A stretch of DNA of 36,946 nt from a virus. Its lineage: Duplodnaviria; Heunggongvirae; Uroviricota; Caudoviricetes. The stretch lies in the IMG/VR virus record IMGVR_UViG_2718218132_000001, one strand, 5' to 3'. The number at the start of each line of letters is the position of its first letter. The first letter of the stretch is position 1. Made by a program: the position numbers and the translations under genes. Shown here in pieces: positions 8,830-36,946 of this stretch. Under the pieces are notes generated by a model that was not told the origin of the DNA, did not search any database, and saw nothing but the letters and a program-made list of their open reading frames with translations.

Positions 8830-10002
8830 TTACGCGCTGACCTGGCTGGCGAAATTCACCAGGTACTGATCGGTGATGCGCTGACGCAGCATCAGGTTTT
8901 CAAGTGGCGGCACTGGCGTGTAGTCGTAGTCGATGGTGAGTTTTCCGGCTTTCAGCGTGTCTTTGTCGTTCACCGACTCATCCAGCCAGCAATCACCACC
9001 AATGAGATAGCCCTGACTGACCAGGCTGCGCATTTTGGCGCGGATACCTTCGATAATGTCGCGGGCCAGCGACGGGTTAAGCGGTTTATCCACCGCCCAC
9101 ATGTGTGCTTCTGCCATCGTGTCCATCAGCACCTGCGCCGTGCGGGTGTAGTTTTCGAAGGCAAAGAGCGGGTCATCACTCAGGCAGCGGGAACCCCAGA
9201 AGCGGAAACCGTCTTTACGCACAAGCGTGGTGACGTCGTTCTGGTTCAGCAGACCTGCATCGGTTGCCGGGTCCTGCAGATCCCAGAACACATCTGCAGA
9301 AATTCCGGTGACACCGTTCACGCCCACGTTGGACAGGCTTTTGTGCCATCCGGTCTGCTCGTCAATTTTGGCGCGCAGACCAAGCGCACGGGCGGTGGCA
9401 TATGCCGTTGCTTCGGCATTCAGCACCGTGTCCCAGCCAGTAAAGTCAGGCCAGATCAGCATCCCTTCGCGCTGGCTGAAGTTTTCGCGGTAAGTGATCG
9501 CCTCCTGCACTGTCTTGCAGCCATACGCTGACAGGTAAGCAAATCCACGCAGGCTTTGCGCCACGCTCAGCAACTCAGTAGCTACCGCCTTGGTGTCGTG
9601 GCCTGGCACGCCGAGAATGCGCGGTTTAACGCCGAGCTGTGACTGGGCAGATAACAGGGCTTTCATACCTGTTTTTTTACCTTCAGCAGTCACTGCGCCG
9701 ATGATATTGGTCGTGGTTTCGTCTTCCGTTTCACCCTGCGGCACACGCACAACAATGGTCACGGGTTTTGCCTGGTCAGCGATGGCATCCAGCGAACGGG
9801 CCAGAGTACCGGACTCACCCGCTTTACCGCTGGCAGTCAGCACATCAGTGATCAGCACGGGTTTATTAAGAGGAAACATTTTTGCATCGGCATCATCGCC
9901 CGTGCAGACCATACCCACGATGGCGGTGCTCACCGTGGTAATAGATCGGGTGCCTTCGTTGACTTCAACAACGCGCACCCCGTGGTGGTAATCCTGAGCC
10001 AT
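8830..10002 (-). CDS. FI: Tail sheath protein (gpFI)
   Basis: 390-aa ORF, contractile tail sheath family, preceded by a TGT-N12-ACA late-promoter motif. Confidence 0.9.
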
Positions 10003-10078
10003 AGTGGCGAACCTCCTGATTGGATTAGGCTTCGCCCTATGTTGAAGTGATTGTGTCCGACAAACAGCTAAGCGCAGT

Positions 10079-10096
10079 TGTACCGTTATTCACACA
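10079..10096 (-). promoter_or_regulatory. Ogr-dependent late promoter element (TGT-N12-ACA) upstream of FI (P_F-like)
   Basis: TGTACCGTTATTCACACA lies about 85 nt upstream of the FI start codon; motif known from P2 late promoters. Confidence 0.5.
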
Positions 10097-10144
10097 AAAT
10101 GACGGTATTTGTCCGCTTGCAGGAATAATCAAAATAATGCTGAT

Positions 10145-10717
10145 TCAGGGAGATTCATTGCTCTTATTTACCGGAAATTTTCTATAAATTGTGGAAACAC
10201 CTACATCAAAAATCAGTGCAATACGCTGTCTTGATTCTCCGGCCTCGAGTAAACGTCCAATCTGTGCCCACTGTTCGGTGGTCAACTTAGGACGGCGTCC
10301 ACCTACTCTGCCTTTGGCGCGAGCTGCAGCAAGCCCCGCCCTGGTACGTTCAACTATTAGTTCGCGCTCCATTTCAGCCAGGGCCCCCATGACATGAAAA
10401 AAGAAACAGCCCATTGGGGTACTGGTATCAATACTGTCAGTCAGGCTTCGGAAATTCACGCCACGCTGGCGCAGCTCTTCTATCAGCGTAACGAGATGCC
10501 GCATACTGCGCCCCAACCTGTCCAGCTTCCAGACAACCAGCGTGTCTCCTGCCGATAGTGTCCTGAGTAGTTTTTTCAGTCCCGGTCTGTCGGACTTAGT
10601 GCCACTGATTTTGTCCTCAAATATCCGCTCACATCCCGCGCAGTTCAGTGCATTACGTTGCAAATCGGTGTTCTGGTCATTTGTTGACACGCGTACATAG
10701 CCAATAAGCATGAGCAT
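10145..10717 (-). CDS. Serine DNA invertase, Hin/Gin/Pin/Cin family
   Basis: 190-aa product beginning MLMLIGYVRVSTNDQ with catalytic Ser in the YVRVST motif and a C-terminal HTH; start placed at an internal Met of the longer ORF. Confidence 0.9.
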   Translation of the reverse strand: MLMLIGYVRVSTNDQNTDLQRNALNCAGCERIFEDKISGTKSDRPGLKKLLRTLSAGDTLVVWKLDRLGRSMRHLVTLIEELRQRGVNFRSLTDSIDTSTPMGCFFFHVMGALAEMERELIVERTRAGLAAARAKGRVGGRRPKLTTEQWAQIGRLLEAGESRQRIALIFDVGVSTIYRKFPVNKSNESP

Positions 10718-10766
10718 CCCCCTGAATAAAAACCGGAGATGATGCCAGTTAGCCGTTATCTCTGCA

Positions 10767-10792
10767 TTTTCATAAACGTTCAATTGGGAGAA
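10767..10792 (+). repeat. Putative 26-bp recombination site (right) of the invertible tail-fibre segment
   Basis: TTTTCATAAACGTTCAATTGGGAGAA; inverted relative to 12301..12326, 19/26 identical, same central TT dinucleotide, encodes ...QLGE in frame. Confidence 0.5.
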
Positions 10793-11215
10793 GCGGCAAA
10801 ACGGGATGTCGGAACCGGTAATAATCAACTCCCGGACATGTCCGCATTTGGTATGTCGCGAAACGGACAAACTGCCTGGGATATTCTCCCAAATGGTATG
10901 ATTCGACAGGCTGGCACTGTGACACTGACACCAGTTGGTAACTTCAACGCGCAGGTGCTTGGTGGGGTGACGTACTACACCCATTACTACAGGGTTAATT
11001 TCCCCAGACAATTCCCAAATGCACAAATAGCAACGCTGGCAACATTAGCGAGTTACAGCTTTTCGACCCAGGCATCAATGGCCGGAAAATCACTGGCAAC
11101 GCATCGCGATACTGATTCTGGCACTGACGTATCAAGAACGCGATTCACTGTGGCGTATACGACACCCAATCTCGGCGAAACACCGACACTGCATTTTGAA
11201 GCAATAGGATACTAA
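10793..11215 (+). CDS. Alternative tail-fibre C-terminal segment (Sv'-like), expressed only after inversion fuses it to the constant part of H
   Basis: Frame is open from the recombination site to ...TLHFEAIGY stop; shares a QLGxAAxRDVG junction motif with H; opposite strand to H and adjacent to the invertase. Confidence 0.65.
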   Translation, partial: AAKRDVGTGNNQLPDMSAFGMSRNGQTAWDILPNGMIRQAGTVTLTPVGNFNAQVLGGVTYYTHYYRVNFPRQFPNAQIATLATLASYSFSTQASMAGKSLATHRDTDSGTDVSRTRFTVAYTTPNLGETPTLHFEAIGY

Positions 11216-11217
11216 AT

Positions 11218-11451
11218 ATGGAGAATATCTATTTCAGCCCAACGACCGTTGGTTTTTATGTTTCTGAACAAGAGCGACCTGATGATGCGGTTGAAGTCTC
11301 GCCAGAGGTGGAGGCATTTTTGAGGGAGTGTGTTATCTGGGGAGCGGATACATTTAACGTAGAGCGAGATGCAGCAACGGTGACATATCCAACAGAACTG
11401 CTTGAATATGTCACCACCTACAACGCCCCCGTTAAATATCCTGCGGATTGA
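11218..11451 (+). CDS. Putative alternative tail-fibre assembly/chaperone gene (tfa'), short at 77 aa and possibly truncated
   Basis: ORF immediately downstream of Sv' on the same strand, converging on tfa; lacks the conserved Tfa C-terminal motif. Confidence 0.4.
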   Translation: MENIYFSPTTVGFYVSEQERPDDAVEVSPEVEAFLRECVIWGADTFNVERDAATVTYPTELLEYVTTYNAPVKYPAD

Positions 11452-11842
11452 CAGGCCATACGGGTTTTGCTGTATCAACGCGCATCAGCAGGACCCGGTA
11501 TTTTTTCCATTCAGATAACGCGGCGGTTTCTTCTGCCGTCGCGATTTCCGCATCAAAAGCATCCTGTCTCCAGGCTATTTCCTTATCAGCCATAGAACGC
11601 AATACCGTTCTTTTCTGTTCAGCCTGAATAATCTGTTGTTCAGCGGAGAGTGGCGGGATATCAATCCACGCAGGATTACCATTTTTATCAGCCCCCAGCG
11701 TTTTGCCTTGTGGCGCTACGCCTGTGTAAATTGCCATTGTTTCATCATCAACATCAACGCCATTTTCAGGCCATGAACCGGCGCTGATATATACCTCTTT
11801 TAGTGCTTTCGGATAGAAAGAGCCTTTATAAAATTTATTCAT
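11432..11842 (-). CDS. Tail-fibre assembly protein (Tfa/gpG-like)
   Basis: C-terminus EIATAEETAALSEWKKYRVLLMRVDT matches the conserved Tfa C-terminal domain; start placed at the ATG 2 nt after the H stop codon. Confidence 0.8.
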   Translation of the reverse strand: MNKFYKGSFYPKALKEVYISAGSWPENGVDVDDETMAIYTGVAPQGKTLGADKNGNPAWIDIPPLSAEQQIIQAEQKRTVLRSMADKEIAWRQDAFDAEIATAEETAALSEWKKYRVLLMRVDTAKPVWPVNPQDI

Positions 11843-11844
11843 TC

Positions 11845-13362
11845 TTAATACCCCAGCGCGATAAAACAACAATCTTCGGTGCCCTCTCCGGATGGCGACC
11901 AGTTCTGAATACTGATATGCGTTCTGCTGGCAATACGCACATTCATCGCGGCATTGTAGCCTGATGTTCCACGGTTTCCGGTCGCAAATAAGCCTGCATA
12001 GGGAAAAGCAAATGGTAAGGCATATCCAGCATCAGCTCCCTTTTGTGTTGCCACCGTTCCCCACTGCAACATAAGTTTCACCGGGTTTCCTGTCGTCGCA
12101 ATGCATGGAATGTAGATGTAGCCATTCCCTGACATCATTGACCTGAAGCTGTCTAAATCCAGTAACTTCGAGGCATTATCTGCTCCAACATCTCGTGTTG
12201 CGGCGGTCCCTAACTGGAGCGCATTTCGGAAGGCTGATACATCAGAAATATCAGCTCCATTAGCCGATTTCTGCATAGCTCCGGAGGCTTTATTTATCGT
12301 TTCTCCCAAACCAAGGTATGTGAGAAGACCAGCTACATCCTTTCCACTCAAATTAGTCAGCGTATTGTCCAGCGGTTGTTTACCTGCCAGTGCATTAAGC
12401 ATTGTCGTGGCAAAGTTCGGGTCATTCCCCAGCGCCGCCGCCAGTTCGTTCAGTGTATCCAGTGCCGCAGGTGCAGAACCCACCATTGCTGCAATCGCTG
12501 ATTTCACAAAAGCTGTAGTGGCAATCTGTGTATTGTTGACCGACTGTGCCGCAGTAGGTGCTGTTGGCGTTCCGGTGAGTGCCGGACTCGACAGCGGTGC
12601 TTTTAGTGCCAGCGCATTGTTAATGGTGGTACTGAATTTCGGATCATTGTTAATGGCTACGGCTATTTCTTTCAGCGTGTCCAGCGTGGCTGGCGCACCA
12701 TTAATAAGAGCCGTCAGTGCCGCCTGAACAAATGCGGTGGTCGCAAGCTGCGTGGTATTATTCCCCGCCGCTGGCGTTGGCGCTTTGGGGGTTCCGGTAA
12801 ACGTCGGACTTTCTTTGGGTGCATACTGTGAATGCGGGTCCGGTGCGGCAAGATGTTTTGCCATCAGGTCATCCACGTACACCTTCAGCTCCAATGCCTT
12901 GTCATCCACATACTTGCGGGTTGCCAGCACTACAGCAGGGTCGATTTTCAGGGTGATATTGTCCGTACTGCTGGTAATCAGCACCATGCGCACGGTCTGG
13001 GTGCGCCCGCTGCCTTCAGCCAGTTGCGGCTTATAGCTTTCCGGGCAGTTGCCCACGGCAATCAATGCCCCGGACTCATCAAACAGGCCCACTTCACGTA
13101 TCCACCAACCGCCCTCGTTTTCAGGGATCACCTGTTCAGCAATAATCTGGCTGCTGTTCTGCGGGTCGATATAAAGCATATTCAGCGCAGCCCGGCGTTT
13201 CTCATTTACCAGTGCCGTCTGCTTTGCGTCCGGCGTTGGCAATACTCCGCCGCCATCGCCCACCGCCATATGGGTAATTTTTAGCGGCACACCGAGCGCG
13301 GCGGCGCAGGCAAGTTTCGCCGCGCCAATATCCGTCAGCAGGGTATAAAATTTTGTGCTCAT
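11845..13362 (-). CDS. H: Tail-fibre protein (gpH-like), with the C-terminal variable part inside the invertible segment
   Basis: 505-aa ORF with repeated TTAFV/ALDTL tail-fibre shaft motifs; sits between gpI and tfa. Confidence 0.85.
   Translation of the reverse strand: MSTKFYTLLTDIGAAKLACAAALGVPLKITHMAVGDGGGVLPTPDAKQTALVNEKRRAALNMLYIDPQNSSQIIAEQVIPENEGGWWIREVGLFDESGALIAVGNCPESYKPQLAEGSGRTQTVRMVLITSSTDNITLKIDPAVVLATRKYVDDKALELKVYVDDLMAKHLAAPDPHSQYAPKESPTFTGTPKAPTPAAGNNTTQLATTAFVQAALTALINGAPATLDTLKEIAVAINNDPKFSTTINNALALKAPLSSPALTGTPTAPTAAQSVNNTQIATTAFVKSAIAAMVGSAPAALDTLNELAAALGNDPNFATTMLNALAGKQPLDNTLTNLSGKDVAGLLTYLGLGETINKASGAMQKSANGADISDVSAFRNALQLGTAATRDVGADNASKLLDLDSFRSMMSGNGYIYIPCIATTGNPVKLMLQWGTVATQKGADAGYALPFAFPYAGLFATGNRGTSGYNAAMNVRIASRTHISIQNWSPSGEGTEDCCFIALGY
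12301..12326 (-). repeat. Putative 26-bp recombination site (left) inside tail-fibre gene H; hix/gix-like imperfect palindrome
   Basis: Coding-strand TTCTCACATACC-TT-GGTTTGGGAGAA; half-sites are inverted repeats (10/12); resembles the hix/gix sites as I recall them; encodes LTYLGLGE of H. Confidence 0.5.
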
Positions 13363-13964
13363 GGATTCACTCTCATTGTGTCAATAACATGGACCGCCCC
13401 ACCTTCATGCGCGGTGCCACCGGAAATAATCGTTTCGTTGATATACGGATAGATCGTGATTTCTTCGCCAAGATAGCTGGCGGCTCCCACCCAATGCGGG
13501 CCGCTGGTCTGCAGATTGATGGACATGCCGATCATGTGACGGCTACATGGTTTGGCATCACTTATCAGTCGCTCAAGTTCCAGATAGGTATCTTCAGTTA
13601 TGCCCTGGTCCTGCACGCCGATATCCAGGCGAAACGTGCCCGGTGCCTCTCCGGTCTGCCACCACTCAATAATGCGGATCAGAAAGCCGAACGGCTCCAC
13701 CACCCGCCGCACGGCACTGGTGGTCCCTTTATGCTGATGAATATAAAAAGCATCCTTCACCACCTGGCGCTTGACGCTTTCTGTCCAGCCCTCATCCCAG
13801 CGATCCACAGAGAACGCCCAGGCGAGATAAGGCAGGAAACTGACCGGACAGGTTGCCGGATTCCACAAGTCACGCAGCGGCACCTGCAGATCAGAAATCC
13901 CACTGCAGGTTTGCGCCAGTCGTCGCTCCAGTGAAGTTGAACCCGGTGGCAGCAGACTATTCAT
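13359..13964 (-). CDS. I: Baseplate assembly protein I (gpI)
   Basis: 201-aa ORF between J and H; P2 gpI-like. Confidence 0.8.
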   Translation of the reverse strand: MNSLLPPGSTSLERRLAQTCSGISDLQVPLRDLWNPATCPVSFLPYLAWAFSVDRWDEGWTESVKRQVVKDAFYIHQHKGTTSAVRRVVEPFGFLIRIIEWWQTGEAPGTFRLDIGVQDQGITEDTYLELERLISDAKPCSRHMIGMSINLQTSGPHWVGAASYLGEEITIYPYINETIISGGTAHEGGAVHVIDTMRVNP

Positions 13965-14865
13965 CCGTTCCTCCGTTGGTCACGCTCCACTGCGTACATG
14001 ATGCCGCCTGTGTTTTGTTCAGGACCACATCCGCCAGAGGGGAAGCCAGCTCCACACGCTGCACACCCTCAACATGCAGGGCGGCAAAGATGGCGCTACG
14101 GCGAATATCCCGACCAAGACGCGTCTGACTGGCGATGTACTTCTGCAGGCTGGCTTTTGCCGCTGCCATTACCGGCTCTGCTTCCGGTCCCGGATAAAGA
14201 AAAATGGTGGCTTCCACTCGGTACGGGATGATTTCTGCGCTGCGAACCGTCAGACGGTCAGCCACCGGGCGGACGTTCTCACTGTTCAGGGCGTTCTCCA
14301 CCACATCCAGCAAGTCTTTTTCTGCAGTTCCGTCGCCTTCGCGGCTAAGGACAGTCAGCACCACCTCTGCAGGTGCCGGGCTGGTTGCACTGGCATCCGC
14401 CACCCGACCGTCGGCGCTTCGGGCATGAAATTCATAAGCGGCAGTTGGCCCCGCAACCGAAAGCCCTTCAAAGGCTGCAGGCACACGCAGGCGTAACGCT
14501 TCATCGCTTTCCATCACAGCCGCAACGGGCGGCACAGCGTCATTATCAGCAGGCGTCACCGTCAGGCGTTTCACGTTGTAGTTGGCAGCGAGCTGGTCAA
14601 GATCGCCGCCCATCGCGTAAGCCACCATCACCGCCTGCGCGGCTTCGTTAATGCGCTGGCGCAGAAGCAACTCACGGTAAGCGTTCTCCTGCAACAATTT
14701 GGTGACTGGTTCAGATTCCAGTTCCAGCGTGCGGATCACTGCTTCCTGCTCATCTTTCGGATGAAGCGCAACAAATTCGGCCTTGCGTTCGGCAAGCAAC
14801 GTCTCAAAGTCCGGCACATCGACAATCTGCGGCGCAGGCAACTGCGAAAGGTCAATCACTGCCAT
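13957..14865 (-). CDS. J: Baseplate protein J (gpJ)
   Basis: 302 aa from the internal Met (MAVIDLSQLPAP...), closely resembling the P2 gpJ N-terminus as I recall it. Confidence 0.85.
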   Translation of the reverse strand: MAVIDLSQLPAPQIVDVPDFETLLAERKAEFVALHPKDEQEAVIRTLELESEPVTKLLQENAYRELLLRQRINEAAQAVMVAYAMGGDLDQLAANYNVKRLTVTPADNDAVPPVAAVMESDEALRLRVPAAFEGLSVAGPTAAYEFHARSADGRVADASATSPAPAEVVLTVLSREGDGTAEKDLLDVVENALNSENVRPVADRLTVRSAEIIPYRVEATIFLYPGPEAEPVMAAAKASLQKYIASQTRLGRDIRRSAIFAALHVEGVQRVELASPLADVVLNKTQAASCTQWSVTNGGTDE

Positions 14866-24653: not shown

Positions 24654-24968
24654 TTAGTTTCTATAATTAGAAATATAGTCATCCATTTTAGCCTGCTCTA
24701 TGATTCCACTATTTTTAATATACAAAACATTTGCCCAATCAAAATACTCACAAAGAATAACAATCATAGTCAAAAGCTTTTCATCAGTCATATTTATTAA
24801 CAGCTCATATTGTTCAGCTTTTTTTTCACTTTCAACTTTATCATCTATCAACTTCACCAAAAGATAAAATCTTCTTACCAAAGAGAAAAAATGATCATCA
24901 ACATCTAAACTTTCCAACCATGCAATGATTCTTTTCTTTTCTATTCCAGCTCTAACCAAGATGCTCAA
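24654..24968 (-). CDS. Hypothetical protein; probable C-terminal part of the upstream membrane protein, split by a frameshift at a G8 tract
   Basis: Starts only with TTG; its frame is open upstream to 25040 and a 1-nt change in the G8 tract (25032..25039) joins it to ORF 24986..25399. Confidence 0.45.
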   Translation of the reverse strand: MSILVRAGIEKKRIIAWLESLDVDDHFFSLVRRFYLLVKLIDDKVESEKKAEQYELLINMTDEKLLTMIVILCEYFDWANVLYIKNSGIIEQAKMDDYISNYRN

Positions 24969-24985
24969 GTTATCATCAATGAAAG

Positions 24986-25399
24986 TTATAGCATTATTAG
25001 ATCTATACTCAATAAGTGTAGGTTCTTTGGTCCCCCCCCTTTACTTTCATCATCATTATCTGCTCCATTACCGATTACAATACGCAATTTATTATAATTA
25101 GAATCTTGAGATTCAATTAGACAGAAAAACCTCACTTCAAATTTTTTGTAATCTTCAAGTAACTCTTGTCTTTTTATCTCTTGTTTCAATGTTGAGTTAG
25201 ACTGCACTTGTAAAGTTACAGAGCGAATCAGCAGGCAAATCGAGATAAAACTTAGTATAGGATTCAGGACCCCACCCATGAAGTCCCCAAATTGCCCCCA
25301 AACATCAGCATCTTGAGTACTTAAGTACCAGGGGCCAAACTTAATACAATAAACCCCCAAAACTATTATTATAAGAGCTAAACAAATTATTTTTAACAT
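24986..25399 (-). CDS. Hypothetical membrane protein (two N-terminal TM helices); N-terminal part of a probably frameshifted roughly 250-aa gene
   Basis: ATG lies 1 nt after the stop of the upstream gene; hydrophobic N-terminus; low GC; ends shortly after the G8 tract. Confidence 0.55.
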   Translation of the reverse strand: MLKIICLALIIIVLGVYCIKFGPWYLSTQDADVWGQFGDFMGGVLNPILSFISICLLIRSVTLQVQSNSTLKQEIKRQELLEDYKKFEVRFFCLIESQDSNYNKLRIVIGNGADNDDESKGGGPKNLHLLSIDLIML

Positions 25400-25400
25400 C

Positions 25401-26219
25401 TTACTGCACCGTATGCACTAAATATTTCACAGTTTCCCCACTGTTAATTATTACCCGACTTACAGTCAGTTCAAGATAAATATAACCAGCAGTGGAAGGC
25501 GGATTATTTACATGTAAGTTAGCCGAAATCATTCTTTTTTGAGCTGGAATGATGACACGTAAGGGGCTATAAAACCCAAATGCCACCGTATCATTTTCGC
25601 CCTCAAGAACAAGCCTACCATTGCCAGTGCGAGCATTAAATCTTGTAATATAAGCCCTGATTACTTCAGTCTTTTTTAAAACACGTGATGTGAATAAATT
25701 TGTTGCAGTAGATGTATCTAATTCAATTACTTTTTTCTTATCATGGGCACGCTGTTTAAAATTTAACTCGATATTATAGTTTTTTTTGAGGTTAATTTCA
25801 TGCATTCTTTTTAGAGGAGCTCGAATACGACCTATCAACTCATCCTCAATATCCGATAAACCTTTAACTACTTCTTCCGCTTCATTGGAAAGTTCGCGAC
25901 TCTCTAAATATAATGATTGCGAAATAAAGAAACTCATCACTTCATTAAATACTGGTTTAGATATTTTGCGAAGTTCTGATACCAGTTCAGCATCATTAAT
26001 AACCAAGTCAAAATTTTGACCATAAGAACCGGTGAAATTCCTCTTGAGTACAGCCCTTGCAGGATTTACATGAGAGCGGCGCTTTATTATTACTTTCCTA
26101 AGTATAGCCTCCGCCAACAAGCAAGTAACCTCTGCAGTTCCTGCAAGCGTGTCGAGACCGTATTCCATATCTACTTCATCATCGCCGCTTTTGATAATAA
26201 CATCGTAATTAACTCGCAT
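25401..26219 (-). CDS. Hypothetical protein (272 aa), first gene of an AT-rich cargo operon between portal Q and cos
   Basis: AAGGAAAG RBS 5 nt before the ATG; candidate -35 TTGACT upstream; no family recognised by eye. Confidence 0.6.
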   Translation of the reverse strand: MRVNYDVIIKSGDDEVDMEYGLDTLAGTAEVTCLLAEAILRKVIIKRRSHVNPARAVLKRNFTGSYGQNFDLVINDAELVSELRKISKPVFNEVMSFFISQSLYLESRELSNEAEEVVKGLSDIEDELIGRIRAPLKRMHEINLKKNYNIELNFKQRAHDKKKVIELDTSTATNLFTSRVLKKTEVIRAYITRFNARTGNGRLVLEGENDTVAFGFYSPLRVIIPAQKRMISANLHVNNPPSTAGYIYLELTVSRVIINSGETVKYLVHTVQ

Positions 26220-26255
26220 TTTCTTTCCTTACGAAAATAATTGCTTCCATTTTGG

Positions 26256-26284
26256 GATTAATCTTAAATTAGCATAGCAGTCAA
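26256..26284 (-). promoter_or_regulatory. Candidate sigma70 promoter for cargo operon 1 (-35 TTGACT, 17-bp spacer, -10 TTAATC)
   Basis: Hexamers read directly on the minus strand about 35 to 65 nt upstream of the 25401..26219 start codon. Confidence 0.3.
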
Positions 26285-26323
26285 TGTTTTTGAACAGCAT
26301 AATCCTAAAAGCGGTAGCGCGCG

Positions 26324-26342
26324 CTCGTATCCCCGCCACGCC
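26324..26342 (-). other. Candidate cos site (cohesive-end region)
   Basis: Minus-strand GGCGTGGCGGGGATACGAG resembles the 19-nt cohesive ends of 186 and P2 as I recall them (first 13 nt match my recollection of 186). Confidence 0.4.
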
Positions 26343-26458
26343 TGCCCGCTTTATGTAGTAGTTTTCATGCAGGTGCATGATCTACGCGAAAGCCCGCCAA
26401 TTCTGGCGGCCCTAGCAAAAACGATCCTCAAACGATCATGCGATCTCATGCAGCATAG

Positions 26459-27301
26459 TCATGCACGATCATTTGACTCAGCATCTGCTGCACGCTTGCT
26501 GCGCGAAGATGCACTTTTACTATCAATCTTTCGACAGTTCTTTCTATCCCTGGCTTCATTTTCTTTAAATTTGTTATATGTCTCAGTATCAAAAAACGAA
26601 ATTGTTTCAACCTCATCTTTTGGTATGAGCACACGGAAATCTTCGATATTAAGCCGAGACATTCCACTTATCACACCACTATCAAGATAATGTTGGTGAT
26701 AGTTAGTCGTGATACTAATCGTTAGATCATCTTTATCCCGATATCCGCTTAACATCGGGAGAAGTTCAAGGTGCTCTGAAAGCCCGTTTTCTAACGCCGG
26801 ACAAGTAACAAGACCAACATAGATTTTGCGAGACGACAGAGTTGCTATGATCGGAAACTGTCTTGCGGACGCTTCCATGAGTAATGATTCGAAAGCGTTA
26901 TTACCCACAGCTTTAGCTAAGGCATCCCAGCGACGATCTCCACGTGATGTGCGTAACTTATTTCCAAAACCTGAAATCGCAGCGAGGACAATTGAAATCA
27001 TAACCCATGCTATCTGTTTGATTTCATTTATTCTTTGAAGTTTGTCTTTCGATGAAGACAACATGCCATTAAAACTGTCAGGTGTTAGATTCAAGGCATT
27101 AGCCAGCCAACGAAACCCTCCGCTGACGTTCAAAATAAAGGTGAAAAAACCGCCAAGGAGAAAAAAAACGATACCCCAGGCAGCCACAAAAAAATAAGCG
27201 TCCCAGCCGTTGGAACGCTTATATCGGTATCTTGTTGAAAGTGATAGGTTTACATAAATAAAACCACTAACCAAAATCACTGCTAAAAGTAATGTTGCCA
27301 T
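26459..27301 (-). CDS. Hypothetical polytopic membrane protein (280 aa) with a soluble C-terminal domain
   Basis: Three to four N-terminal hydrophobic helices; translationally coupled (TAATG) to the upstream 71-aa ORF; AT-rich. Confidence 0.6.
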   Translation of the reverse strand: MATLLLAVILVSGFIYVNLSLSTRYRYKRSNGWDAYFFVAAWGIVFFLLGGFFTFILNVSGGFRWLANALNLTPDSFNGMLSSSKDKLQRINEIKQIAWVMISIVLAAISGFGNKLRTSRGDRRWDALAKAVGNNAFESLLMEASARQFPIIATLSSRKIYVGLVTCPALENGLSEHLELLPMLSGYRDKDDLTISITTNYHQHYLDSGVISGMSRLNIEDFRVLIPKDEVETISFFDTETYNKFKENEARDRKNCRKIDSKSASSRSKRAADAESNDRA

Positions 27302-27516
27302 TATCTGGTTCTATTAGTTTTCTCTTTTACAGTGCTCGTTTTGATGCCTTCAAGCTTATCCATCTGTGCCTTGATGGCATCCATTGCTCTTTTGTTAGAC
27401 AAGTCTACGGACACAAAACCATCTTTACTAAGATTGAGTTTGTCCTGGTTCTCTTTAAGAACCCTTGCCAGACGTTCAACTGGGTTACCCAGGCTAAATG
27501 CGGCGATGCTTGACAT
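27301..27516 (-). CDS. Hypothetical small protein (71 aa), first gene of cargo operon 2
   Basis: ORF whose stop overlaps the start of the membrane-protein gene; basic C-terminus; no family recognised. Confidence 0.5.
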   Translation of the reverse strand: MSSIAAFSLGNPVERLARVLKENQDKLNLSKDGFVSVDLSNKRAMDAIKAQMDKLEGIKTSTVKEKTNRTR

Positions 27517-34154: not shown

Positions 34155-35831
34155 ATGAATTCATTTTCCATCGTTATATTCTTATTAGCATTTCTCGCCC
34201 CCATTCTAGCTGTAATATTATTTAAGCAAAGCAAAAAACATAAAGCGGCTATAGATACCTTGACAGCTAACAACATAGCCCTTTCCAACCAACTGAAAGA
34301 AAATCAAGAAGAATTAGCACAGACTGTACGAGATCTATCAGAGCTTGAAGGACGAGCTGCACCATTATGGCAATACGTAGAATTGCACAGCGCAGTGATG
34401 GAAGCAGAGAATAAGATAAAAAATGCAGACTCAATAGCCAGGCAAAAAATAGAAGAAGCCCAAATAAAGGCTGCTAAGACAGTAAACGAAGCAAATTATC
34501 AAGCTCAGATAAAAATAAGCAACGCTAATAGCGAAGCTATAGCAATTACTAAAGACGCTCGCGATGCACGCCTGAAAGCTAAAGAACGTCTTGATAATGC
34601 CAATAGTAAAGCAAATGAGCTGATCTCAAATGCTAATGACAATGCAGTGAAGATTATTTCCGATGCAGAAGAAAGAGCAAAAGAGATTGCTGGTTCAGCA
34701 TATGAAGCTAAAGAATTTGCAGAAAAATATGAAGCAGTTGCCAAATCAATGAAAAATAAAATTGAAGGTTATGGTGATGAATGGATCATCCCTAACCGTA
34801 GCGTTCTCGATGAATTGGCAGAAAATTATGAGTTTACAGATGCAGGCAAGGAATTACAAAAAGCCAGGGAGTTAACAAAATCATTAATAAAAACTAATAA
34901 AGCTGCTTCGTGTGATTATGTTGAACAAAACAGGCGTAATACTGCTATCAACTTTGTTTTAGATGCCTTCAATGGAAGAGTTGACAGTATTTTATCAAAA
35001 GTCAAACACAACAATTTTGGAAAACTTTCCCAAGAGATAAAAGATGCGTTTCAACTTGTAAATTACAATGGTTCTGCCTTTAGGTCCGCAAAAATAAGTG
35101 ACATCTATCTTCAAGCTCGACTCAACGAGCTAAAATGGGGTGTTGCAGTTAATGAAATTATGCTCGAAGAAAAAGAAGAGCAAAGAAGGATTAAAGAACA
35201 ACTTCGTGAAGAGGAAAGAGCTCGTAGGGAGTATGAAAAAGCGATAAAAGAAGCTGAAAAAGAAGAGAAAGCTATTCAGCAAGCTATAAATAAAGCAACA
35301 AAAGAGCTTATGCTTGCAAATGAAGAACAACGCTTAGCTTTAGAGCAAAAAATAGCTGAACTACAGTTAAAATATGAAGAAGCTGAAGCTAAAAACCAAC
35401 GAGCTATTTCTATGGCTCAACAAACTAGATCAGGCCACGTTTATATAATTAGTAATATTGGCTCATTTGGCGAAGATGTATATAAAATTGGAATGACACG
35501 CCGCCTTGAACCACTTGATCGTGTTCGTGAACTCGGTGATGCTAGTGTTCCTTTTTCGTTCGATGTTCATGCGATGATTTATAGTGATGATGCACCATCA
35601 TTAGAAAATCATCTGCATAAAGTCTTCAACGAAAAACAGGTCAATAAAATTAACTCACGAAAAGAGTTTTTCAACGTAAATATTAAAGAAATTAAGTCTG
35701 TTATTGAAGATATGAACATCAACGCACAATGGACAATGTTTGCGGAAGCGAAAGAATATAGAGAGTCACTGGCGATTGAGCAAGAGCGCAAAGCAGCAAC
35801 TTCCGCCAACGATGAACTGCATGTTGCTTAG
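34155..35831 (+). CDS. Membrane-anchored coiled-coil protein with C-terminal T5orf172/GIY-YIG-like domain (DUF4041-type); lysogeny-operon cargo
   Basis: N-terminal TM helix, about 350 aa of Ala/Glu/Lys/Asn-rich coiled-coil, C-terminal HVYIISN...YKIGMTRRLEPLDRVREL...PFSFDVHAM motif pattern; AT-rich. Confidence 0.7.
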   Translation: MNSFSIVIFLLAFLAPILAVILFKQSKKHKAAIDTLTANNIALSNQLKENQEELAQTVRDLSELEGRAAPLWQYVELHSAVMEAENKIKNADSIARQKIEEAQIKAAKTVNEANYQAQIKISNANSEAIAITKDARDARLKAKERLDNANSKANELISNANDNAVKIISDAEERAKEIAGSAYEAKEFAEKYEAVAKSMKNKIEGYGDEWIIPNRSVLDELAENYEFTDAGKELQKARELTKSLIKTNKAASCDYVEQNRRNTAINFVLDAFNGRVDSILSKVKHNNFGKLSQEIKDAFQLVNYNGSAFRSAKISDIYLQARLNELKWGVAVNEIMLEEKEEQRRIKEQLREEERARREYEKAIKEAEKEEKAIQQAINKATKELMLANEEQRLALEQKIAELQLKYEEAEAKNQRAISMAQQTRSGHVYIISNIGSFGEDVYKIGMTRRLEPLDRVRELGDASVPFSFDVHAMIYSDDAPSLENHLHKVFNEKQVNKINSRKEFFNVNIKEIKSVIEDMNINAQWTMFAEAKEYRESLAIEQERKAATSANDELHVA

Positions 35832-35914: not shown

Positions 35915-36946
35915 ATGGCAGTACGAAAACTCACCACAGGAAAATGGCTTTGCGAATGTTACCCCGCCGGACGTAGTGGACGTCGTGTGCGTAAACAATT
36001 CGCCACCAAAGGCGAAGCTCTGGCTTTTGAGCGTCACACGATGGAAGAAACCGAAGCAAAGCCCTGGCTGGGTGAATCAGTGGATCGTCGAACACTGAAA
36101 GACGTGGTTGAACTATGGTTCAAACTACATGGTAAATCTCTGACAGCTGGGCAGCATGTCTATGACAAATTGCTGTTGATGGTTGACGCTCTGGGCAATC
36201 CCCTTGCAACCGATCTCACCTCTAAAATGTTTGCCCACTATCGAGATAAACGTCTGACAGGAGAGATCTACTTCAGCGAAAAATGGAAGAAAGGAGCAAG
36301 CCCGGTCACCATTAACCTGGAGCAAAGCTATCTAAGTAGTGTTTTTAGCGAACTATCCCGCCTGGGCGAATGGTCGTATCCGAACCCACTGGAGAACATG
36401 CGAAAATTCACCATCGCAGAAAAAGAGATGGCATGGCTTACCCATGAGCAGATTGTTGAATTGCTGGCTGATTGCAAACGTCAGGACCCAATTCTGGCAC
36501 TGGTAGTTAAGATATGCTTAAGCACAGGCGCACGTTGGCGTGAAGCCGTAAATCTTACCCGCTCACAGGTGACCAAATACCGAATTACCTTTGTAAGAAC
36601 GAAGGGGAAGAAAAACAGAAGCATCCCTATCAGTAAAGAGCTTTACGAAGAGATCATGGCGCTTGATGGGTTCAATTTCTTTACAGACTGCTATTTTCAA
36701 TTTTTATCCGTGATGGAAAAAACGTCTATCGTGCTCCCTCGCGGTCAACTGACACACGTTCTGCGCCATACGTTTGCGGCGCACTTCATGATGTCGGGTG
36801 GAAATATCCTGGCCTTACAAAAAATTCTCGGGCATCACGATATAAAAATGACTATGCGTTACGCACATCTGGCACCGGATCACCTGGAAACTGCATTACG
36901 GTTTAATCCGCTGGCAACACTACCAACATCAATAGCAATTTTTTGA
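35915..36946 (+). CDS. int: Tyrosine integrase (P2/186 Int family)
   Basis: 343 aa; C-terminal catalytic residues in LRHTFAAH...HHDIKMTMRYAHL (R/H-x-x-R...Y); stop codon at the window end. Confidence 0.9.
   Translation: MAVRKLTTGKWLCECYPAGRSGRRVRKQFATKGEALAFERHTMEETEAKPWLGESVDRRTLKDVVELWFKLHGKSLTAGQHVYDKLLLMVDALGNPLATDLTSKMFAHYRDKRLTGEIYFSEKWKKGASPVTINLEQSYLSSVFSELSRLGEWSYPNPLENMRKFTIAEKEMAWLTHEQIVELLADCKRQDPILALVVKICLSTGARWREAVNLTRSQVTKYRITFVRTKGKKNRSIPISKELYEEIMALDGFNFFTDCYFQFLSVMEKTSIVLPRGQLTHVLRHTFAAHFMMSGGNILALQKILGHHDIKMTMRYAHLAPDHLETALRFNPLATLPTSIAIF

Follow-up and report, generated by a model that had tools for sequence, protein, structure and literature searches.

The 36,946-nucleotide stretch of DNA analysed here (IMG/VR record IMGVR_UViG_2718218132_000001; hereafter the window) contains a P2-like prophage of Escherichia coli whose tail-fibre operon very probably carries a site-specific inversion switch of the Din family, that is, of the Pin/Gin/Cin/Hin type. 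The whole window is 100% identical to positions 3341087-3378032 of E. coli EC590 (NZ_CP016182.2). Within it, a segment at 10779..12314, measuring 1,536 base pairs (bp) from core to core and 1,560 bp with both crossover sites included, holds two alternative C-terminal ends of the tail-fibre gene H, and this same segment is found inverted, at exactly these cores, in other genomes. The component parts of the switch, their frame-preserving geometry and the family to which enzyme and sites belong were likewise observed. The switch is genuine but of an ordinary, well-known kind, which has already been shown experimentally in P2-like prophages.

The enzyme of the system is encoded on the minus strand at 10145..10711, beside the segment, where the initial annotation had placed a Hin/Gin-family invertase. 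This protein of 188 amino acids (aa) consists of a Pfam Resolvase domain (residues 3-135, E 3e-52) followed by an HTH_7 domain (residues 138-180), and it thus conforms to the Din-family plan, in which a small serine recombinase (about 190 aa) has a catalytic domain with a Ser9/10 nucleophile at its N-terminus and a helix-turn-helix at its C-terminus. Its N-terminal sequence, MLIGYVRVS(9)T, which includes Ser9, is the same as in Pin, Cin and Gin. Over the full protein the identities are 84% to PinE of e14, 76% to Cin of P1 and 73% to Gin of Mu, with the catalytic-domain residues invariant. A comparison with the phrog_125 DNA invertase family returned an E-value of 3e-99, and the top matches in the PDB were the Gin structures 3UJ3 and 4M6F (E 3e-91).

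Two inverted, imperfectly palindromic 26-bp crossover sites bound the segment. The invertase-proximal (left) site occupies 10767..10792 (TTTTCATAAACGTTCAATTGGGAGAA, core TT at 10779-10780), where it heads the promoterless tip B segment described below and is upstream of the invertase, 56 bp from its start codon, and the H-internal (right) site occupies 12301..12326 (TTCTCCCAAACCAAGGTATGTGAGAA, core AA at 12313-12314). The initial annotation had reported the pair at these positions, with 19 of 26 positions identical and a shared central dinucleotide, all of which was reproduced here; the pair is also the longest inverted repeat within 10000-13400. In window coordinates it is the right site that lies inside H, not the left one as originally stated, and there it is translated in frame as L-L-T-Y-L-G-L-G-E. 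The core is an identical, non-palindromic AA/TT dinucleotide in the two sites, present in inverted form (TT versus AA), and natural recombinants switch at this point.

In terms of family, the sites were compared with the published Din-family site sequences (site table of PMC3241671). The reverse complement of the invertase-proximal site (TTCTCCCAATTGAACGTTTATGAAAA) matches e14 pixR at 23/26 positions, and the H-internal site matches pixL and pixR at 22/26 each, cixR at 21/26 and hixL at 20/26, whereas no other 26-mer on either strand of the window exceeded 19/26 to any of the published sites. Relative to the Din consensus (TTCNNNNAAACNNANGTTTNNNNGAA), the H-internal site has one mismatch and the invertase-proximal site three; searching the window with this consensus returned the two sites and two distant three-mismatch matches, and nothing more. 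Additional crossover sites of the kind found in a Min-like shufflon were considered and rejected, as only these two sites match the consensus or the conserved half-site, and with no third site the locus is a simple two-state switch. The original description of the pair as hix/gix-like holds with respect to the Din type, the e14 pix sites being the closest relatives, but the 19/26 repeat on its own is at chance level. Specifically, an inverted pair of at least 19/26 arose in 18 of 20 shuffles of the 3.4-kb region (best pairs 18-23), and we accordingly rejected the repeat by itself as significant. The significance of the sites comes instead from their matches to published Din-family sites, the kept reading frame and the comparative genomes.

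In-silico inversion of 10779-12314 leaves H open and in frame, changing its product from 505 to 494 aa. The gene runs on the minus strand from 13362 to 11845. Its constant N-terminal part of about 350 codons (12315..13362, minus strand), with the Pfam domain Phage_tail_fib at residues 1-150, is followed by tip A, the variable C-terminus expressed in the window orientation (11845..12312, minus strand; Gp53-like_C at H residues 430-505). The silent alternative, tip B or Sv' (10781..11215, plus strand), is promoterless, forms part of a plus-strand open reading frame (ORF) at 10739-11215 between the Tfa and invertase genes, likewise contains the Pfam domain Gp53-like_C, and joins H at about residue 350 after inversion. 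Around the junction the native protein reads ...GLLTYLGLGETINK... and the inverted one ...GLLTYLQLGEAAKRD..., the G/Q-L-G-E of these sequences being encoded by the inner half-site itself. With the Leu codon across the core taken as the first, 156 codons are exchanged for 145, which corrects the initial estimate that the last roughly 150 codons of H are replaced; the length of the segment is as first given (roughly 1.56 kb). Two bases past the stop codon of each tip a small gene begins, namely a Caudo_TAP-type Tfa gene after tip A and a 77-aa ORF after tip B. Tip B is 84% identical to the H tip of a non-invertible prophage (L009), and H residues 181-340 (window 12315-12820), a stretch of 160 aa, share 80% identity with the constant part of the P1 S fibre. 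Separately, the constant shaft of H was seen to contain an internal duplication, with residues 258-349 matching residues 184-275 of the L009 H protein a second time.

Both orientations of the segment occur in nature. A query of 2,048 nucleotides (nt) spanning both predicted recombinant junctions found one-piece matches to the inverted form in approximately 25 complete E. coli genomes at 98-99% identity, and the same span in the window orientation was present at full length, in a P2-like context, in approximately 11. In strain ECCRA-119, which carries the inverted form, the annotated H is 1,485 nt long and is followed by an identical 77-aa protein (WP_001340317.1), an identical Tfa is located on the silent strand, and the junctions are exact recombinant half-sites. 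Strain CE12-1 carries the same prophage at the same ybjL chromosomal site in the window orientation, and over 26,048 aligned bp it differs from ECCRA-119 by two single-nucleotide polymorphisms (SNPs), both outside the segment, plus the inversion. The end-points of this inversion are confined to the 2-bp core, as moving them outside it adds mismatches, and in L001 and L016 the junction switch is located at the left-site core. End-points within the core, together with recombinant half-site junctions, are what conservative strand exchange at this dinucleotide leaves behind, and near-identical prophages flipped exactly at the predicted sites show that the switch is real. The initial annotation had named the occurrence of a single orientation, combined with sites unlike those of the Gin family, as what would speak against it; public genomes show both orientations, and the sites match pix. 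Two LF82 assemblies were also considered as same-strain evidence and set aside as uninformative, since they have the same flanks with other cassettes and both show one orientation.

With respect to mechanism, these observations are consistent with an invertase that would bind two inverted pix-like sites, one in H codons ~345-353 and the other 56 bp before its own start codon, and exchange strands at the AA/TT core such that the 1,536-bp segment flips. Transcription and translation from the late operon would then be confined to whichever cassette is joined to the constant part of H. In the window orientation this would be tip A (156 codons) with its Caudo_TAP Tfa, and after inversion tip B (145 codons) with its 77-aa partner. 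With one cassette expressed per orientation, a population of lysogens should release particles with two alternative receptor-binding tips, and by analogy with related systems the two tips probably confer different host ranges.

The switch probably also depends on Fis and a recombinational enhancer, as judged from sequence. The probable enhancer is situated in the 5' end of the invertase gene (10622..10693, minus strand; gene nt 19-90), in a stretch homologous to the P1 cin enhancer that is 76% identical to cin and 86% identical to pinE. Within this stretch are two 15-mers of the form G-N13-C (gene nt 22-36 and 71-85), spaced 49 nt from start to start. The stretch lies 87-158 bp from the left core, a spacing that agrees with that of the Hin enhancer, which is about 100 bp from its site (PMC3798978). 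The putative enhancer is coding sequence as well, and its conservation is thus not enhancer-specific and is suggestive only.

Several observations weigh against a working inversion switch in this prophage. The enhancer has been assigned from homology only, and the receptor specificities of tips A and B are argued by analogy. The inner half of the left site departs from the consensus, reading AATTG and not AAACC. The evidence for both orientations is at the population level, across genomes and not within EC590. In addition, a scan of the minus strand upstream of 10711 for the sigma-70 consensus yielded no invertase promoter. By eye, the sole promoter-like element upstream of the invertase (10740-10790, minus strand) is a weak TTGAAC-17 nt-GATAAC, the -35-like TTGAAC of which overlaps the crossover core and turns into ACCAAC on inversion; one might speculate that invertase expression could in this way depend on orientation. 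To these points must be added a private R102C substitution in the window invertase (codon 102, window 10406-10408), which appears to be rare: among 5,426 complete E. coli genomes, only two, EC590 and OW968288, contain the 31-mer around the Cys102 codon, and both have the window orientation.

The R102C substitution leaves the activity of this copy unproven, and it raises the alternative that the switch is of genuine Din type but frozen in EC590, with an inactive invertase and the locus locked with tip A unless another Din invertase acts in trans. Position 102 is Arg in PinE, Cin, Gin, the enzyme of a P2-like prophage of enteropathogenic E. coli (EPEC) and the ECCRA-119 and CE12-1 copies, and in alignment it corresponds to Lys105 of gamma-delta resolvase, where helix E begins; both facts, like the single orientation of the two genomes that share the Cys codon context, count in favour of a frozen switch. 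Two genomes are nonetheless too few to show locking, and the invertase gene is otherwise intact. Substitutions at the start of helix E are tolerated, and can even be activating, in related resolvases, and Din invertases cross-complement one another. With regard to effects of Hin R103 or Gin R102, nothing was found in two papers on Hin. On balance we consider a frozen switch rather unlikely, and the EC590 invertase may well be active.

It could also be proposed that the two orientations differ not through site-specific inversion but through homologous recombination or cassette replacement between prophages, as different elements clearly trade this segment with one another. It occurs from core to core (10776-12314) at 98% identity in the lambdoid phage phi458 (OP434518), where homology ends at the crossover cores, the segment copy is broken by IS1 and the pin gene is truncated. 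It is also present at approximately 97% identity in the plasmids CP010173 and CP067401 (94-96 kb, putatively P1-like, judging by size). Moreover, about 1,700 E. coli genomes, recovered as matches of 57% coverage, have the same flanks with other cassettes, an arrangement found in many E. coli P2-like prophages, and the sequenced P2-like phages Cartapus and 500465-1 have the same flanks with an annotated DNA invertase. The presence of the segment in a lambdoid phage and in plasmids, and of other cassettes between the same flanks, indicates that the cassette moves as a module between unrelated phage types. As an explanation for the two orientations, however, such exchange is very improbable. In the near-isogenic CE12-1/ECCRA-119 pair no SNP falls inside the segment and the end-points lie within the core, the junctions are exact recombinant half-sites, and the inverted homology, 26 bp at 73% identity, is far too short for RecA-driven inversion. 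We give practically no credence to the reading that the inverted repeat is a chance match and the plus-strand ORFs are decayed, functionless remnants: a 19/26 inverted pair is indeed expected by chance in 3.4 kb, but the pix matches and the kept frame are not accounted for, neither tip B nor the 77-aa gene is broken and selection has conserved both in other prophages, and the annotation of the inverted form as full-length H in many genomes, the half-site junctions and the CE12-1/ECCRA-119 pair refute it.

For the Din-type inversion switch, the gene downstream of each tip also changes with orientation. Tfa, the assembly chaperone of the expressed tip A (11432..11842, minus strand), was identified by its match to Caudo_TAP (PF02413; the family of lambda Tfa, Mu U and P2 G) at profile positions 5-131 (E 2e-31) and by phrog_188. 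The initial annotation had proposed that Tfa is swapped for a tfa'; Tfa is indeed lost and replaced on inversion, but the replacement is the 77-aa ORF (11218..11451, plus strand), which does not belong to Caudo_TAP and had no match in Pfam or NCBIfam. Its resemblance to the N-termini of the Tfa family is limited to the first 31 residues (phrog_188, E 9e-5). Homologues of 77-80 aa are found in Citrobacter, Enterobacter and Phytobacter, with identities down to 59% and conservation over the full length. A profile search of 1.84 billion representatives returned only 16 proteins; the strong matches to the 77-aa family were all 43-96 aa long, and there were weak matches of the N-terminal motif to two longer proteins, one with a Phage_tail_APC chaperone domain. 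An AlphaFold (AF2) model of the protein is compact and alpha/beta in character, with a predicted local distance difference test score of 92.7, and it had no significant structural neighbour.

Further support for this gene comes from its setting elsewhere. In the non-invertible P2-like prophages L007 and L009-L011, a 77-aa-family gene alone separates H from the sheath gene, in the place that gene G has in P2, and the H proteins share 53-84% identity with tip B at their C-termini. The joint presence of the two in prophages that do not invert indicates a conserved pair. Sequence comparison thus supports the 77-aa ORF as a real gene despite its lack of Caudo_TAP. From its conservation, position and N-terminus it is probably a short fibre-assembly protein; a fibre-assembly or accessory role is the best reading of these data, and it presumably serves as a chaperone of tip B. 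We further suggest, with slightly less than even confidence, that the 77-80-aa protein may be an undescribed minimal tail-fibre assembly or accessory protein, having the Tfa N-terminal motif only and a compact alpha/beta fold of its own, in which case inversion would toggle two unrelated helper classes along with two receptor-binding tips. This small non-Tfa partner of tip B is the sole mildly new element of the switch. The tfa gene and the 77-aa ORF are convergent, with a 20-bp overlap (11432-11451), and a hairpin with a 14-bp stem is present at 11379-11415, within the last part of the 77-aa ORF and shortly after the point where tfa stops. As minus-strand RNA this hairpin, a possible terminator of the late operon, is stable (-34 kcal/mol, z -5), although no U tract accompanies it.

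Comparison with characterized systems places the switch firmly among known ones. The closest enzyme is that of the e14 Pin/P-segment system of E. coli K-12 (pinE, stfP/ycfK-tfaP, tfaE-stfE), whose sites are nearly the same and whose gene order is identical: fibre constant part, tip and Tfa, inverted Tfa' and tip', invertase. The distance from the 5' end of the invertase gene to the site is 56 bp here, 55 bp in e14 and 67 bp in Mu. The two differ in that e14 is a defective lambdoid element with a side tail fibre, whereas here an apparently complete P2-like prophage uses gene H, and in partner class, one helper here being the 77-aa non-Caudo_TAP protein. The contents of the cassettes are unrelated, since blastp comparison of the window tips and Tfa with the e14 proteins gave no match. 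A relationship of tips and Tfa to the cassettes of e14, Mu or P1 was rejected more generally, as only the conserved C-terminal half of Tfa matches Mu U and P1 U.

The closest experimental precedent concerns the P2-like prophage of EPEC E2348/69, in which inversion at NC_011601.1 2977580-2979467 was demonstrated in culture by sequencing and PCR (Goldberg et al. 2014, PMC4272514, Table S1). At that locus the genes are arranged in the same way (H / Tfa / Tfa' / Sv' / invertase / sheath), the cores of the pix-like sites (TTCTCCCAAACCAACGTTTAAGAAAA) coincide with the published inversion coordinates, and the invertase shares 77% identity with that of the window. The locus differs in having other cassettes, with both chaperones of the Tfa family, and in belonging to a truncated prophage, in which a partial integrase gene abuts a shortened H. 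The Mu G segment follows the same logic, with a constant Sc joined to Sv-U or Sv'-U' and the 5' end of the invertase gene beside the segment, but it is about 3 kb long with a GA core and two Tfa-family chaperones, and Mu is a transposable myovirus. P1 resembles the present system in its Cin invertase, in an enhancer within the 5' end of the invertase gene and in the S constant part noted above, and differs in having cixL next to the 3' end of cin and in the length of its C segment, 4.2 kb. Min of p15B has six sites, compared with two here. Carotovoricin Er (Nguyen et al. 2001, cited in PMC4272514) and other P2-like tailocins have contractile P2-type tails in which the fibre C-terminus is switched by inversion, with a published change of target range; carotovoricin Er is a bacteriocin from another genus and is likened here by description, not by sequence. 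The proposal that the locus follows the Mu G-segment or P1 C-segment logic is thus borne out by the Pin/Cin/Gin homologue, the pix-like sites, the kept frame and the two orientations.

The surrounding prophage, which adjoins ybjL, is apparently complete, with ogr (2856) at one end and the integrase gene (starting at 35915) at the other. In the RefSeq annotation of the identical EC590 region the P2-type late gene set and order are present (ogr, D, U, T, E, FII, FI ... H, I, J, W, V ... capsid N, O, P, Q), together with CI and integrase genes, and the Phage_tail_fib domain of H agrees with the original assignment to a P2-like prophage. The late genes are located on the minus strand and include J (13957-14865) and I (13359-13964) next to H. 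The invertase gene sits between the fibre genes and the sheath gene, which lies beyond it at 8830-10002. Elsewhere in the prophage, a plus-strand gene at 34155-35831, between the CI repressor and integrase genes, encodes a 558-aa DUF4041/T5orf172 protein that matches the PADLOC defence model PD-Lambda-1 (E 4e-120), anti-phage cargo in a P2 hotspot. Between the portal and DinI-like genes, five consecutive hypothetical ORFs of 104, 137, 272, 280 and 71 aa occupy 24654-27516 on the minus strand; they matched no Pfam or PADLOC family except for a weak ZorB/MotB-like match (24986-25399, E 1e-4), and the region is likely a variable cargo or defence hotspot.

This locus leaves the knowledge of Din-family switches unchanged. 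For genome annotation, it means that a 'gp53-like' fragment followed by a 'hypothetical protein' is the silent half of a switch and not junk, and for assembly, that a finished genome records one orientation, captured arbitrarily. For phage engineering, it offers tip-plus-helper cassettes with exact, portable 26-bp boundaries that are common to P2-like, lambdoid and P1-like elements. In terms of phage biology, the locus is a clean, well-bounded case of host-range bet-hedging by DNA inversion.

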